Source: a virus
Taxonomy: Duplodnaviria > Caudoviricetes
Virus record (IMG/VR): IMGVR_UViG_3300035501_000578
Coordinates: 47,956 to 111,955 of that record
Strand: one strand, 5' to 3'
Length of the DNA stretch: 64,000 nucleotides
Of the stretch, positions 4,899 to 44,565 are shown piece by piece. How positions within the stretch are numbered: position 1 is the first letter of the stretch; each line of letters starts with the position of its first letter. The position numbers and the translations under genes were made by a program. Under the pieces are notes generated by a model that worked only from the letters and a program-made list of their open reading frames with translations, was not told where the DNA came from and ran no database searches.

Positions 4899-5474
4899 TT
4901 ACGCAATCTGCTTATTCTGTACTACTTCAATACGAACAAGTGTGTAATAAGTTCCAACAGCAAAACTATGAATCTTACCGATAAATCCATAAGTAGAAGC
5001 TTCTGGCTTTTCAGCCTGTGCTACCCATGCACCGTTGCCATCGACAACTACATAAGCACCAACTTTTACAGCATCAGTAGAATCATCTGTAAACTGATAA
5101 GAAGCGATTGCAAAGATATCTTTATGAACATCTACGTCCTGAATCTGATAAGCCTTTACTGGCTTACCAGCAGCATTTGTGTAGTTATATGCCTGTTTCT
5201 GTTCTGTAGTAAGTGCCGTCTTAACATCAGCAGGAGCACCAGTGACAGCAATCTTGTCACCTACACCAGCGATAGTTGCATAAACTTCCTGAAGACCATT
5301 ACCTGTACTTTCACCGATCTTCAAAGCTACACCGTTATCTACTTCGATCTCATTTTCATTTTCATCACGCACAATTGCGTCGTATAAATTTCCGATATCA
5401 GTCGAAGCGAGGCGGCTGCTCTCGAATAATCCATGCAAATTCAAAGATTTGCCTTTTAGATTGGTATATACCAT
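4899..5474 (-). CDS. Putative capsid decoration/stabilising protein
   Basis: 191-aa beta-rich ORF directly before the MCP gene, same codon bias. Confidence 0.55.
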   Translation of the reverse strand: MVYTNLKGKSLNLHGLFESSRLASTDIGNLYDAIVRDENENEIEVDNGVALKIGESTGNGLQEVYATIAGVGDKIAVTGAPADVKTALTTEQKQAYNYTNAAGKPVKAYQIQDVDVHKDIFAIASYQFTDDSTDAVKVGAYVVVDGNGAWVAQAEKPEASTYGFIGKIHSFAVGTYYTLVRIEVVQNKQIA

Positions 5475-5537
5475 AATTTTTTCCTCCTTAAATTTTTAAT
5501 ACAATAAAAAAGACCATTCAATTAAGAATGATCAGAT

Positions 5538-6902
5538 TCAAATAACTTTTTCTAATCTTGTCCAAGTGAGACGTGTTCCGTCTGACAGCGTTCCTGCGAA
5601 TTTCCTATTTTCATCTCGAAAATAATTACTGATATTTCCATGATATTTGTTTTGAGCTTCTTTGAAATTGTGAAATATTTCCCCTGTTTCATTACACATT
5701 ACCAAAGTATTGCGTGGATGATTATATGTTTTAAGCATATGCTGAAAATTTAATTGTTTAATATCTTCAATAGACTCATTAATTACATGATTTTTTGAAG
5801 CCATATATAAATATCTTCGTATTGTAGTATCGGACAATTTAAGTTTATCTTGTAACTCGACAATACTTTTTACTCCATTATTCCATTCATTACAAATACG
5901 TTTAATTAATGGAGTATTAGCTTCAAGCAAACAATTATCCCAATCAACATTTTCTATGTCAATTATTTTTGATAATTCTGAATTAACAATATTTTTCTTG
6001 ATATATTCTTCTCTATTATCAAAATTATAATTACAATCAATTCGTATCATGACATATCCATGTTTTTCAGCTTCAATAGTTTTGAATTTATCTCTAGCTT
6101 TTGTTTCTTTTAATGTCATTCCAGATAAGTTATTATCAAAATAATGCCATCCACCATCCATTTCAATAATATAATATTTATCATTTATTACAATTTGAAA
6201 ATCATATTTATATGGTTTGATCCAGTCCGGTGAAAATTGAAAATTATATTCAATATTTAACTGAGATAAAATACTAGACATTAATCTTTCTGGGAAACTT
6301 ATTCCTGTTCCGCATTTACTACAAGACAATCCATAATTTGCAACATAATAAATTGGAGCATAAATTTCTTCACCACAATCAGGACAAATAAAATACGTTT
6401 TTTCATGACTTAATTCTTTGTATTTATGTCCATCTTTTTTATCTTTTAATAAATTATATAATTTTTTGTTTGTTGCATAAATATCATTAACATACGGAAT
6501 ACAATGATGATTCATTTTTGAATAACATACTGGACAATTGCATTGTTTTCTTCCAAAAGCATTGCTAGGAATAATAGTAAATTCGCATCCACAATTATGT
6601 TTTATTTCTACTGGTGTACGATTGTTTAAGTAATTACCTATCACTTCATAATCATTACCAAATTCATCATAAAAACGTTCTTCGAATTGTTCTTGTGATA
6701 ATTTTATTCCACCATAACAAATACAACAATTAATTCCATTCAAAATATTTTTTGCAGCTTGATTGCAAATGTGCCCACACTTATTATGTTTAAGCATTAT
6801 TTTATTTGTACATCCAGTATATCTACCAAGTATTGTATATTTATTTGGAAATTTCGTTTCTACTTCTTGAACAAATTCTTCATGCGTCTTATTTTTACCC
6901 AT
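5538..6902 (-). CDS. Free-standing Zn-ribbon plus Vsr/PD-(D/E)XK-like homing-type endonuclease
   Basis: Repeated H/CxxC modules, SFPER...YKYDF...IIEMDGGWH nuclease motif, C-terminal NUMOD1-like region. Confidence 0.7.
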   Translation of the reverse strand: MGKNKTHEEFVQEVETKFPNKYTILGRYTGCTNKIMLKHNKCGHICNQAAKNILNGINCCICYGGIKLSQEQFEERFYDEFGNDYEVIGNYLNNRTPVEIKHNCGCEFTIIPSNAFGRKQCNCPVCYSKMNHHCIPYVNDIYATNKKLYNLLKDKKDGHKYKELSHEKTYFICPDCGEEIYAPIYYVANYGLSCSKCGTGISFPERLMSSILSQLNIEYNFQFSPDWIKPYKYDFQIVINDKYYIIEMDGGWHYFDNNLSGMTLKETKARDKFKTIEAEKHGYVMIRIDCNYNFDNREEYIKKNIVNSELSKIIDIENVDWDNCLLEANTPLIKRICNEWNNGVKSIVELQDKLKLSDTTIRRYLYMASKNHVINESIEDIKQLNFQHMLKTYNHPRNTLVMCNETGEIFHNFKEAQNKYHGNISNYFRDENRKFAGTLSDGTRLTWTRLEKVI

Positions 6903-29716: not shown

Positions 29717-30970
29717 TTACATACCCTCTGCCACTTGACTTATTTTACTTCTGTAAATATTCTGCAATTCAACTTCACCATAGAAATCTTGTCCTCTAAA
29801 CACTTCAGACATTCTACGCATACCGTTATTATTCCCTGCATATTGATTAAGATCAACTTGTGCAGAATAATCTCCATCAATAATACAAATTGAATCATCA
29901 CCAATTCTTTGTAATGCTAATTTCATAAGTGAAATATCCATATTTTGTGCTTCAGTAATATAAATACCTGCATTCATTCCGCTTGTATCAAAACCTCTAA
30001 TATCTGACATAGGAAGTAATTGAATTTTCCCTTGTGATATCATTTGTTCTAATGCAAATGAATCTCCAAGCTTTGAAGAAAGCATATTTCCAATTGCTGA
30101 ATCAAGCAACTTTTCATCTTTGGTTCCAGGATAATATCCGAGTTTCGCTGAATTTGCGGTTGCAATTGTATTGCAAAATACTATAATTTTGTCTATTTTT
30201 CGTTTCTCTAACAACCACATCAAATATCCAACTGCTAAATAACTTTTACCAGTTCCAGCAGAACCTTTGATCATAGTTAATTGATTATTAGATAAGCTAT
30301 TTAATACCATTTGTTGATAGATATCTCCATTATAAGGTTTAACTGAACCAAAATAGTTTGATTTAATGATTGGAAATTTTACATTTTGATATTCATATCC
30401 ATTCCATCTAAATTTATCAATTATTTTTCCCATTGTATCTTTTAATACCAGATATTCATTTACCAATAAATCATAAGTATTTTCTGTTAGATGTTCATAA
30501 AAATAAGCCATATCTTTTTCTGTCAAAGAAATATCCTCAAACCCTTTATATTCATCATCAGAATTATTTCCAACTGATTCAACATCCAACATAAAAATTT
30601 TTTCAGCAATAACCTTACAAGAAATATCATTAGTAATAAATACTAAATTTTCATCTTGTTCAAACAAATTTCTAATAAATGCGGCAGATGCTACAATTTT
30701 GCTATCAGGCGTAATTTCAATATTTTTTAAATTAATATATTCCTCAATAGTATTCGTATAAACTATTACATCATATTTATCAGAGTTCTCATCTAATAAA
30801 TGTAAAATCTTCCTTGCATTATATTTTGTTTCTTCGTCTTTTCTATTCGATGTTTTTATAGACTCCAATTCTTGTAATGTTATGGAAGATATAACAAATT
30901 TATTTTCAAATATTTTATTTTGTAATTTTAAAATGGCGTTTGTATCATAAAAATAAACTTTTTTACTCAA
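29717..30970 (-). CDS. phoH: PhoH-family ATPase with N-terminal PIN domain
   Basis: FYDTN, LQELE and FITND (PIN); GSAGTGKS, IRG, TEAQN, QVD, RS motifs (PhoH). Confidence 0.92.
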   Translation of the reverse strand: MSKKVYFYDTNAILKLQNKIFENKFVISSITLQELESIKTSNRKDEETKYNARKILHLLDENSDKYDVIVYTNTIEEYINLKNIEITPDSKIVASAAFIRNLFEQDENLVFITNDISCKVIAEKIFMLDVESVGNNSDDEYKGFEDISLTEKDMAYFYEHLTENTYDLLVNEYLVLKDTMGKIIDKFRWNGYEYQNVKFPIIKSNYFGSVKPYNGDIYQQMVLNSLSNNQLTMIKGSAGTGKSYLAVGYLMWLLEKRKIDKIIVFCNTIATANSAKLGYYPGTKDEKLLDSAIGNMLSSKLGDSFALEQMISQGKIQLLPMSDIRGFDTSGMNAGIYITEAQNMDISLMKLALQRIGDDSICIIDGDYSAQVDLNQYAGNNNGMRRMSEVFRGQDFYGEVELQNIYRSKISQVAEGM

Positions 30971-31015
30971 CCGGCGTTACCGCCTTTCTTTATTATTTTT
31001 AGTAACTGTGAACTA

Positions 31016-31201
31016 TTACTTTATTGTTTCTAGTAAGTCCACATACTCATCTTGAATATAACGTTTCCGAGCAGAACTTTTTGTGCGATAGAATCCTACT
31101 TCGTATCCGTTTTTATTCACATAACCACGATTGGTATTACGAATAATTCCATTCGCTAATAATTTCTCAACGTCTTGTTTAGAAATATACTTGATTTTAA
31201 T
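31016..31201 (-). CDS. Small basic protein (61 aa, probable ATT start)
   Basis: Open frame KIKYISKQDVEKLL...KRYIQDEY after a purine-rich RBS; ATT is the only plausible start near the RBS. Confidence 0.45.
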   Translation of the reverse strand: MKIKYISKQDVEKLLANGIIRNTNRGYVNKNGYEVGFYRTKSSARKRYIQDEYVDLLETIK

Positions 31202-31306
31202 TCACTTCACTTTCCTTGAATTTCCTATAATGAAAAAGAAACATATTTTCAATGTCTCTTTAAAGGTGATTCCGTCTTTTAATAATCAACACCTTCGTTG
31301 ATATGT

Positions 31307-31385
31307 ATTGCTACGCAACAGAGTTGAACTGTTTTGATCAAATTAATGGGACTTGATGAGATATCCGACCTCCCGCCAGCTACAA
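31307..31385 (-). tRNA. Degenerate tRNA-Met(CAT)-like element
   Basis: ATCAAGT-CCCATTA-ATTTGAT arm with central CAT, T arm AACAG-TTCAACT-CTGTT, bulged acceptor, enlarged D region. Confidence 0.5.
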
Positions 31386-31470
31386 TATAATTTATTTACA
31401 GAAGAACAAATGACGATGCCTTCAGAACGAAAACACCGCCACCTGTATAAGATATGTTTAAAATAATTTT

Positions 31471-32009
31471 TAATTATCAGGTATCTATAAGAAAACTGAA
31501 TTCCTTTCATAACTCCAACCAATTTCTATTGTTCAAAAAAATATATTTTATATAACCAAAATGATAGTTATATAATTTATAATTTCTTCCATTTTTCTTC
31601 TAAGCTGGCATAGCAGCAATGTCTTATTTCTTCTCATTTTAAGAACACAAACCCTTATATAGGGATCATCTTAAATATAATTAACTGAATACGAATAACG
31701 AAACGATTAAAGTATTAACAAAATATCATATTCATGAATTTTCAAAATTACAAAATTATGAAATAGCAAATCACAATACGCTTTGCGACTCTATTACTTT
31801 GTTATTTGATTTATAAAATCAAATTCCTCTTTTACAAAAAAATTTATAATATGTAAAGTAAATGTTGTTTACTTAGCCTTCATATTCTATATTGATATAT
31901 TAGTATTATATAGTTAATACAAAACTTTGCAGCGTTATAGTTCATCTGCAACTGAACCGGTTGACAATTATAATTCTTATTCAGTTCCCTTATACATACC
32001 TGATAATTG
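31471..32009 (-). ncRNA. Candidate ~540-nt structured ncRNA downstream of the 204-aa gene
   Basis: 30-bp terminal stem, second long-range stem, H-type pseudoknot, several hairpins, ~8-nt periodic tract; no ORF of 60 aa or more. Confidence 0.7.
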
Positions 32010-32033
32010 TATGGGGAAGGGAGAGTAATAGTG

Positions 32034-32648
32034 TTAAGCTACTACTACATCCTCGAATTTATCAGTTACGTCATAAGTTGGTTCAAAATCAACAATAGTA
32101 TTGATTTCAATAGCATCTAGTTTAGTCGATACTTCATCACATTCCTTAGATAACTTCTTGATCAATCCCTTTACATCATTACGATTAAAGTCGATAGAAG
32201 TCTTTTCGGTAACATTGTAATAATACTTAATCTGATTACCATCCTGCAAATTGAACTTATAGTCAGAACCTTGTTTCTGTTTTTCGGAAGGCTTAATATT
32301 AGCAATAGAATTCAATACAAATATAAACTGTTGCTTTTTCTTATTCAGTGCAATTGCATTATCTATATTGATTTCTGTACCAGATTTTGCTTTTGCAATA
32401 GCATCTGCAAGAGATTCCTTTTCTCTAATTACCTTTACAACAAAATTAATAACATCATTTGGTGTAAAGTCAACATCATATGGTTTCTGTGCAACAATCA
32501 CTTCATCAGGTGCTTCGCTATTTGCTTTTGAGCGTAAGTGTTCCTCTGTTATAGTTGTTACGAAACCCTTGCTCCCAAGATATATATAAGCTGTTTTTAA
32601 TAAATCATCAAGATAGTTAGCGTAACGGTATGATTCCTTTAAATTCAT
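32034..32648 (-). CDS. Helical/coiled-coil protein, remote DIP1984-like architecture
   Basis: MNLKESYR...IDNAIALNKK...DVKGLIKKLSKECDEVSTKLDAIEINTIVDF; strong RBS; highly-expressed codon usage. Confidence 0.6.
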   Translation of the reverse strand: MNLKESYRYANYLDDLLKTAYIYLGSKGFVTTITEEHLRSKANSEAPDEVIVAQKPYDVDFTPNDVINFVVKVIREKESLADAIAKAKSGTEINIDNAIALNKKKQQFIFVLNSIANIKPSEKQKQGSDYKFNLQDGNQIKYYYNVTEKTSIDFNRNDVKGLIKKLSKECDEVSTKLDAIEINTIVDFEPTYDVTDKFEDVVVA

Positions 32649-43737: not shown

Positions 43738-44565
43738 TTATTCTGTTTTTATCTTTGCAGCGAGTTCGTCAAATATATTCCTTTTGTGAGAGTTGGATTT
43801 ATCTGTTATATTTAACTTCTCCATAATTGAATCTAATGTTAATGAAAACATTTCTCTTATTTCCTTGTAATAATTAATTACATCTATTGCGTAAGGATTA
43901 ATATCTAGTTCAAATTCTGATTTATAGGCATCAACAAAATCATTAATTTCTATTCCATATGTATCTTCAGTTTCATTAATTACCAGATGAATGATTTCTG
44001 ATAGTTTTAGTGTCTCATCCGAGTGAGTATTTACATAGGATAGAAAAATATTAAGTTTTGCAAATGTATTGGTTTTCCAACGTGAATATTTCTTTTCAGG
44101 TAATTTCTTCTTATTGGATTGTTCTTCTAATGCTGAGAGTCGGGTATTAATATCTTCTCTCATCAAATTTATAGTTTCTGTGATTGTATTTAAAGCTGAT
44201 ATGAAAGAAGTAGTAATATTTTCTTCTTCTAATTCATGGAACTTATTAACATATCTAGCTGTAAATTCAGTGCCTTTTTGACCTGTTAGTTTATTTGCTA
44301 TAAATTCACAACCTTTACGAATTACATTAAAACAAGGTAATTCCTTATTCTGTTCTGATATGTAAGTAAATTCAATAAAGAAATCGGAGTGTCCAATTTT
44401 GGCTTCTCCTAATTGATTAGTATATCTACGAATATCTCTTATAAGCTTGTTATGATCTTTTTCAACCATAGTTGCTACTTCCATTGAAGTGATTGTCTCT
44501 GTGTTTTGATTTGTGATAATGTTATTCATAATATTTGTCTCCTTTTTATAAAAATATTTGTTCAT
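43738..44565 (-). CDS. Rha-family regulatory protein
   Basis: ITSMEVATMVEKDH..LIRDIR, RKGCEFIANKLTGQKGTEFTARYV. Confidence 0.9.
   Translation of the reverse strand: MNKYFYKKETNIMNNIITNQNTETITSMEVATMVEKDHNKLIRDIRRYTNQLGEAKIGHSDFFIEFTYISEQNKELPCFNVIRKGCEFIANKLTGQKGTEFTARYVNKFHELEEENITTSFISALNTITETINLMREDINTRLSALEEQSNKKKLPEKKYSRWKTNTFAKLNIFLSYVNTHSDETLKLSEIIHLVINETEDTYGIEINDFVDAYKSEFELDINPYAIDVINYYKEIREMFSLTLDSIMEKLNITDKSNSHKRNIFDELAAKIKTE

Follow-up and report, generated by a model that had tools for sequence, protein, structure and literature searches.

A Large Pseudoknotted RNA Inherited Together with the Gene of a DIP1984-Fold Protein in Phages and Bacteria

Introduction

Large structured RNAs of unknown function are rare in bacteria and phages, and each of those described has opened a field. 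The 64,000-nucleotide (nt) stretch of gut-phage DNA studied here, hereafter the window, is part of the IMG/VR virus record IMGVR_UViG_3300035501_000578, which measures 111,955 nt and is estimated to be 67% complete. The 537 nt that lie behind the gene of a 204-amino-acid (aa) protein in this window are the gene for a large structured non-coding RNA, read in the sense of the protein gene. This RNA represents a new class of large structured RNA that is inherited together with the gene of a protein of the DIP1984 fold. RNA and protein gene form a self-contained two-part cassette carried by large phages and, in sporadic cases, by bacterial chromosomes.

The cassette RNA combines unusually strong comparative support with a dedicated protein whose fold (DIP1984/DUF6847) has been without a function since 2009. 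Since each of the two can serve as bait for the other, the cassette offers a direct experimental handle on both orphans.

Architecture of the RNA and Comparative Evidence

The element (Table 1) begins 25 nt past the stop codon of the 204-aa gene. A first-pass annotation of the window, made by a model from the letters alone, had reported a 30-nt inverted repeat at this place, and the repeat is indeed there: the two arms of the closing stem P1 are complementary at 27 of 30 positions (90%) and lie 477 nt apart. As that annotation had also stated, two of the three internal differences are G.U pairs when the minus strand is read; the third is a G.G mismatch. P1 continues into a second long-range stem, P2, with which it forms a closing helix of ~45 base pairs (bp) that joins the ends of the RNA. 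Next to P2 lies the most conserved part of the RNA, the compact H-type pseudoknot PK1. Both P2 and PK1 had been proposed before and recur in the minimum free energy (MFE) fold as well as in the alignment folds.

In PK1, the first stem (S1, 6 bp) pairs GGUUCA (31958-31953) with UGAACU (31944-31939), and the second (S2, 5-6 bp) pairs UUGCAG (31951-31946) with CUGCAA (31932-31927). Loop L1 is a single G, the junction a single A, and loop L3 consists of six purine-rich nt. Loops as invariant as these may mark a site of specific binding or a tertiary core. A second small pseudoknot, PK2 (31926-31902), and a terminator-like hairpin behind the closing stem (31446-31406) had been overlooked in the earlier reading, while the "about six local hairpins" that it listed are mostly not conserved. 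PK2 is restricted to the AT-rich phage and Lachnospiraceae group, with variants in L005, L033, L072, L078, and L084 (L numbers denote the loci compared).

The sense strand folds with -131.5 kcal/mol (z = -6.4 versus shuffles), but the antisense strand is stable as well (z = -5.85). Since folding energy alone cannot tell the strand, comparative evidence was used instead. A search with the 204-aa protein yielded 27 related viral loci. An alignment of 13 sequences (A1) was tested against a named structure of 74 pairs, comprising P1, P2, both stems of PK1 and of PK2, and the 3' hairpin. In this alignment, 96.4% of the cells form standard pairs, compared with 32-43% when the partner columns are slid, and changes on both sides occur at 24 pairs, compared with 1-7. 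None of 500 shuffles reached the observed values, and RNAalifold independently identified 23 compensatory pairs.

The support extends over all parts of the structure. Compensatory changes were found at 11 of 25 P1 pairs in A1. P2 (helix 2) is paired in 99.5% of cells with double changes at three pairs, each PK2 helix (5 and 6) has double changes at two pairs, and the terminator-like hairpin (helix 7) is paired in 97.9% of cells with double changes at five pairs. In PK1, the second pair of S1 is G-C, C-G, or U-A and the last one A-U or G.U. In S2, UGCAG/CUGCA is replaced by UGUGG/CCACA in four loci, and the sixth pair is U-A, G-C, A-U, or G.U. PK1 thus consists of two crossing helices with compensatory change in each, as expected of an H-type pseudoknot.

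The closing stem provides evidence for the strand. It occupies the same position with unrelated sequences across lineages, including GC-rich genomes; in all of them it measures 28-49 bp and encloses 350-640 nt. Among the 27 viral loci, for example, TCAGG/CCTGA is replaced by TCGGA/TCCGA or TAAAG/CTTTA. When the 5' arm was aligned to the reverse complement of the 3' arm, 30 distinct helices, GC-rich bacterial ones included, gave 1104 Watson-Crick pairs, 159 sense-strand G.U pairs, and 18 A.C mismatches. In a repeat at the DNA level, G.U and A.C should be equally frequent, so that the ratio of 159 to 18 argues for RNA in the sense of the protein gene. The preference of the first-pass annotation for RNA over a DNA inverted repeat is therefore borne out by both the G.U excess and the covariation.

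Table 1. Positions of the RNA element, its parts, and neighboring genes in the window.
Feature	Position	Strand	Remark
Whole structured RNA element, 537 nt	31472..32008	-	from 5' arm to 3' arm of the closing stem
P1 closing stem, 5' arm	31979..32008	-	30-nt inverted repeat
P1 closing stem, 3' arm	31472..31501	-	30-nt inverted repeat
P2 second long-range stem, 5' strand	31959..31973	-	MFE and alignment folds
P2 second long-range stem, 3' strand	31509..31520	-	MFE and alignment folds
PK1, compact H-type pseudoknot	31927..31958	-	most conserved part of the RNA
PK2, second small pseudoknot (AGUU/AACU crossing GUAUU/AAUAC)	31902..31926	-	helices 5 and 6 of the alignment test
Periodic single-stranded tract, 7-9 units of UG/AAUUY type, exact 8-nt period	31712..31776	-	lag analysis
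AAUCGUUUCGUU motif just past the periodic tract	31695..31708	-	read by eye
Terminator-like G.U-rich 19-bp hairpin with U-rich tail	31406..31446	-	conserved in relatives
204-aa protein gene	32034..32648	-	open reading frame; DIP1984-like fold, predicted homodimer, acidic
YonO-like single-subunit RNA polymerase gene, 944 aa	33137-35971	-	phrog_8308; weak phrog_4291 "RNA-dependent RNA polymerase"; motif GADFDSD
PIN-PhoH gene	29717-30970		after the RNA

Association with the Protein Gene and Distribution

Homologous elements of 350-640 nt are present in about 70 other contigs. A degenerate PK1 pattern was found in 45 viral contigs, with one copy in each, and in bacteria at 11 genuine loci besides two chance matches. 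These 11 loci belong to Lachnospiraceae, Lachnoclostridium, Eubacterium, Ruminococcus, Limivicinus, Selenomonadaceae, and Anaerovibrio sp. RM50. Overall, some 25 genomes of bacteria (Lachnospiraceae, Selenomonadaceae, and others) contain the PK1 core, and gut and rumen bacteria are among the carriers.

Every genuine PK1 locus has an upstream open reading frame (ORF) of 203-231 aa on the same strand that is a clear homologue of the 204-aa protein (32-82% identity). The gap between gene and core is ~50-70 nt in all of them but L078 (139 nt). With a hidden Markov model of the protein, the gene was detected within 1100 nt upstream and on the same strand at 75 of 76 PK1 loci; the 76th is truncated, with 63 nt of flank. 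Conversely, PK1 lies downstream of 15 of the 16 strong protein matches in Negativicutes, and the exception is a broken gene. The coupling of the RNA to the 204-aa gene that had been proposed is thus tight and holds in both directions. Conservation is higher in the RNA core than in the protein: phages with proteins of only 58-66% identity share ~85% identity over a 76-nt block around PK1.

The distribution is sporadic, with 16 strong protein matches in 301 Negativicutes species genomes and two in 400 Clostridia. The cassette is present in one copy per genome in all five genomes tested, and no second copy of the element was found in the virus record. A search of the neighbors of the loci for a conserved third gene gave none; the other neighbors are unrelated housekeeping or phage genes (gltX, cydA, leuA, pyrC, a nitroreductase, the Eco47II endonuclease, Rha, and a beta-CASP protein), which leaves the cassette with two parts only. 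A full cassette is carried by Anaerovibrio sp. RM50 (L076), a cultured bacterium, and protein homologues were named in Lachnospiraceae bacterium A4, Thomasclavelia cocleata, and Romboutsia ilealis. Searches of GenBank phages with the region (blastn) and with the protein (tblastn) were both empty and thus revealed no cultured-phage relative at the sequence level. Phage T5 matched neither the protein profile A2 nor RAGATH-27, an empty answer that in itself shows nothing.

More distant loci retain parts of the arrangement. L125, which encodes a remoter homologue (E 1e-33), lacks the canonical PK1. Its 28-bp closing stem and its 8-nt AAUUC array are preserved, and an apparent 5' pseudoknot can be read there by eye. 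A remote branch of the protein in Negativicutes (L109-L114; 227-237 aa, E ~1e-8) is followed by conserved, hairpin-rich sequence, and the downstream hairpins of L109, L110, and L112 differ compensatorily from one another; this sequence may represent a sister RNA class. In L094 and L103-L106, 160-300 nt of GC-rich hairpin repeats stand between the protein gene and an intact RNA. In the Selenomonadales genome of L083, the Eco47II-type restriction endonuclease gene (4907-5683 of that locus) lies two genes upstream of the cassette, which may indicate a defence-island context.

The 204-Residue Protein

More than 1000 homologues of the protein exist, falling into 1056 clusters at 50% identity. All of them are unnamed and none carries a Pfam family. 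For the 204-aa protein itself, Pfam returned only a sub-threshold match to DUF2624, PHROG and PADLOC contain no family for it, and NCBIfam at E values up to 1 gave nothing relevant, the DIP1984 model included. A sequence search of the Protein Data Bank (PDB) with the protein profile was equally empty.

The confident AlphaFold2 model (predicted local distance difference test, pLDDT, 93.8) consists of four long helices and a long beta-hairpin. Its only whole-domain match in the PDB is 3KDQ (DIP1984), with a VIA Z of 10.1 and a root-mean-square deviation of 4.1 over 145 of 152 residues, covering model residues 1-187. Foldseek assigned the same entry a probability of 0.97 and template modeling (TM) scores of 0.47/0.60. 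The DIP1984-like layout that the first reading had recognized is therefore supported. Structural neighbors in the Atlas carry DUF6847 (TM 0.68) or DUF7873, whereas Foldseek against BFVD gave only marginal, uncharacterized phage proteins, the best from Vibrio phage Vp_R1 (TM 0.51/0.58, E 1e-3). Despite the shared fold, there is no sequence-level membership in DIP1984, DUF6847 (PF20935), or DUF7873, and the 204-aa protein is ~50 residues longer.

The protein probably multimerises, as had been surmised from its sequence. A symmetric homodimer was predicted with an ipSAE of 0.71, against 0.01 for the best of three controls; the runs agree in at least 97% of contacts, with a partner pLDDT of at least 89. 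In calibration, the mark used was reached by 20 of 30 proteins solved as one-chain pairs and by one of 23 solved as single chains, counts that hold only roughly because a custom alignment was used. The most conserved stretch is an aromatic beta-hairpin, with Y130, F132, Q139, and Y142.

The Periodic Tract

The U-rich tract had been described as ~13 degenerate units of 5-8 nt between 31686 and 31780. A tract is indeed present, but it is narrower (~31776-31712) and made of seven to nine units of exactly 8 nt. Within it, lag 8 gives the highest self-identity of any lag (0.58), a value that 2% of shuffles reach at any lag. The same lag is the best self-match in the window, L004, L008, L072, and the distant Selenomonadaceae locus L075, with at most 2% of shuffles reaching it. 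In the clade of the window, UG recurs at exact 8-nt steps up to nine times, while L075 and L125 have AAUUC units every 8 nt. The exact period is thus shared by distant lineages with differing unit sequences. The tract is predicted to be unpaired in the MFE fold. Just past it lies the AAUCGUUUCGUU motif; as read by eye, ACGYKUCG recurs in most lineages.

Transcription Unit and Expression

Gene and RNA are separated by 25-70 nt. A consensus scan for a promoter of the RNA itself gave no more sites than shuffles, and none was conserved between gene and RNA; the TGTATAAT that precedes the stem in L075 and L083 is an isolated case. In some bacteria, the closing stem overlaps the last codons of the gene with its 5' arm. 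Given the lack of a conserved promoter and the reach of the stem into the coding region, gene and RNA are taken as one transcription unit.

Metatranscriptome contigs from three animal-gut runs, belonging to three studies, match only 31526-31973, inside the closing stem. They are 151-233 nt long and mostly 95-99% identical, and none lies on the gene or the flanks. Such a placement fits a stable processed RNA, with the limits that contigs cannot show ends or strand and that DNA carry-over is possible. They prove presence only, and the uncovered gene and flanks cannot be read as silent.

Comparison with Known RNA Families

Rfam 15 gave no match at the gathering score in the whole window. At E values up to 10, only three chance-level matches appeared within 30900-32100, and six distant loci gave none on the element at E values up to 0.1. 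With ROOL, GOLLD, and OLE among the models at both gathering and permissive thresholds, the impression that the RNA belongs to no recognized family is upheld. The best match to RAGATH-27 (RF03100; an 86-position model with a 76.1-bit cut-off) in the virus record reached 18.5 bits (E 0.29), which is chance level, and lies away from the element. In the papers searched, DIP1984 and septicolysin appear in annotation mentions only and DUF6847 and DUF7873 not at all, and the ROOL and GOLLD papers do not describe this RNA. A retron non-coding RNA was considered and rejected: RVT_1 is absent from the virus record, at its 67% completeness, and from the neighbors in the examined loci.

A Possible Ribonucleoprotein and Its Alternatives

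On the strength of the co-inheritance and the predicted dimer, it is tentatively proposed, with less than even confidence, that gene and RNA encode a ribonucleoprotein. A single transcript would comprise gene and RNA, and cleavage of its long double-stranded closing helix by a nuclease for double-stranded RNA such as RNase III would release a stable RNA. The dimeric DIP1984-fold protein would then bind the released RNA, most plausibly by docking of several dimers on the 8-nt array, to build a ribonucleoprotein particle. The array would in that case serve as a protein-assembly track, which, if true, would be a new way to build an RNA-protein particle.

Several known systems offer partial parallels. 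In SmpB-tmRNA, a small protein gene is followed by a structured RNA with paired ends and H-type pseudoknots, and the two form a particle. The cassette resembles smpB-ssrA in that a small protein gene is directly followed by an end-paired RNA of 350-600 nt with H-type pseudoknots. However, it has no SmpB (Pfam), no tRNA-like end, and no tag frame, and its distribution is sporadic rather than universal. A tmRNA was also sought with ARAGORN, and none was called in the window or in 35 loci. OLE RNA, a structured bacterial RNA of ~600 nt, is likewise large and has neighboring genes for its own partner proteins (Oap), but Rfam gives no OLE match here, the partner would be a soluble helical dimer instead of a membrane protein, and gene order and host range differ. 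For the array, the Bacillus TRAP/trp and HutP/hut leaders may serve as a model, with evenly spaced short single-stranded units bound by a symmetric oligomer. Those units are triplets in 5' leaders that control attenuation, whereas the cassette has an 8-nt period in a closed downstream RNA, its protein is unrelated, and binding is hypothetical.

Some of the findings weigh against a ribonucleoprotein. The RNA contigs are short, come from relatives, and are silent on ends, strand, and processing. The 8-nt signal is weak or absent in L033, L077, L078, L081, and L084. The protein family is acidic (isoelectric point 4.8-5.7; 5.1 for the 204-aa protein), unlike most RNA-binding proteins, and the DIP1984 fold, having no known function, lends no support to RNA binding. 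The adjacency of gene and RNA would, moreover, be equally expected of a cis-acting 3' untranslated region (UTR).

As to the role of the cassette, its mobile-like, sporadic distribution and its place in phages near tRNA and RNA-processing genes point to RNA metabolism or phage-host conflict. A wider reading is conceivable but rather doubtful. According to it, the pair would be one branch of a very widespread, undescribed class of ribonucleoproteins, in which DIP1984-fold dimers line up along a 7- or 8-nt array in a pseudoknotted, end-closed RNA whose gene directly follows that of the protein. Present in large phages and some bacteria, these particles would influence the RNA metabolism of host or phage in trans.

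Among the alternatives, an RNA-only machine survives best, although it appears unlikely. ROOL and GOLLD form RNA-only assemblies, and both have been reported beside tRNA genes. By analogy, the neighboring protein would act in the same pathway or in the biogenesis of the RNA, and not as its stable partner. Like GOLLD (RF01998) and ROOL (RF03087), which are large ornate RNAs of Firmicutes and their phages that often lie near tRNA genes, the cassette RNA is large (350-640 nt) and ornate, and the same context, a phage location beside tRNA genes, was found in 11 phage lineages. In these 11 (L007, L008, L021, L024, L025, L033, L045, L065, L072, L084, and L086), out of about 14, a tRNA follows on the same strand within ~170 nt downstream, compared with none of the bacterial loci. 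The acidic protein and the higher conservation of the RNA core would also suit such a machine. In contrast, neither ROOL nor GOLLD matches the RNA by covariance model, and those RNAs are not known to have a dedicated protein neighbor. The cassette RNA is strictly tied to one protein family, and this two-way linkage persists across unrelated contexts, tighter than would be expected of a pathway neighbor.

Distinctly unlikely is a cis-acting 3'UTR that stays on the messenger RNA and controls its stability, termination, or translation, possibly through feedback of the protein on its own message. The start of the RNA 25-70 nt past the stop codon, the lack of a conserved promoter, the overlap that the closing stem can have with the last codons, and the terminator-like hairpin behind the RNA are all in line with it. 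Yet known 3' stabilizers need far less than an RNA of 350-640 nt that has two pseudoknots and a near-invariant core, the RNA remains intact in L094 and L103-L106 despite 160-300 nt of other sequence after the gene, and the RNA contigs lie on the element and not on the coding region.

An antagonistic pair, whether a toxin-antitoxin or a defence/counter-defence system, is improbable. The RNA array would sequester or neutralize the protein as ToxI does ToxN, and the cassette would be a selfish or immunity module. Type III toxin-antitoxin systems (ToxIN, CptIN, TenpIN) likewise consist of a protein and a pseudoknotted repeat RNA and occur sporadically in chromosomes, plasmids, and phages. A stand-alone two-part cassette with a repeat array in its RNA, scattered over phages and chromosomes (16 in 301 Negativicutes, two in 400 Clostridia) at variable insertion sites and in one locus beside a restriction endonuclease, would match this picture. 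The cassette RNA, however, lies after the gene and not before it, and its 8-nt units are far from the processed repeats of type III systems (roughly 36 nt; units of about 34-45 nt). Membership in these systems was rejected in view of the missing PADLOC match and the lack of a nuclease-like, ToxN/AbiQ-like fold among the matches, although absence from a list of folds is weak evidence.

A DNA-level element, such as an invertible promoter segment, a remnant of a transposon resembling miniature inverted-repeat transposable elements, or an iteron replication origin, would explain a 30-bp inverted repeat around a 477-bp AT-rich segment with short repeats and an antisense strand that also folds well, but it is highly improbable in light of the strand-asymmetric mismatch classes (159 G.U versus 18 A.C), the covariation of the internal helices and both pseudoknot stems, the single copy per genome, the lack of a recombinase or transposase as a conserved neighbor, and, as weak evidence, the absence of inverted joints in the contigs on the region.

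Genomic Setting

In the AT-rich window, the minus strand carries the genes up to ~44.5 kb. At about position 44500, GC skew and gene orientation flip, with minus-strand genes below and plus-strand genes above. The surroundings of the 204-aa ORF include a 74-aa ORF, genes for an HNH endonuclease and a ClpP-like protease, and a gap of 1063 nt without long ORFs that holds the RNA element. Nearly all phage loci, but no bacterial one, have a homologue of the YonO-like polymerase (20-78% identity) upstream of the cassette.

Behind the terminator-like hairpin, relatives have a tRNA gene (Lys, Met, or Thr) in the region that corresponds to 31300-31400 on the minus strand. ARAGORN found no tRNA behind the RNA element of this window; the region is a GC-richer stretch (GCTGGCGGGAGGTCGG...GTTCAACTCTG) that is called a tRNA neither by ARAGORN nor by Rfam and may be a decayed tRNA. 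Further on, a minus-strand block at ~31030-31230 is 69% conserved with relatives, in which it can be read as a small ORF of ~60 aa with a GTG start after AGGA; the frame in the window has no canonical start there. The gene after the RNA is of the PIN-PhoH type in the window, whereas in the phage-like loci L072 (1630-3081) and L084 (2888-4285) it encodes a beta-CASP/metallo-beta-lactamase RNA-specificity protein of the RNase J/CPSF type. Both kinds of gene product act on RNA.

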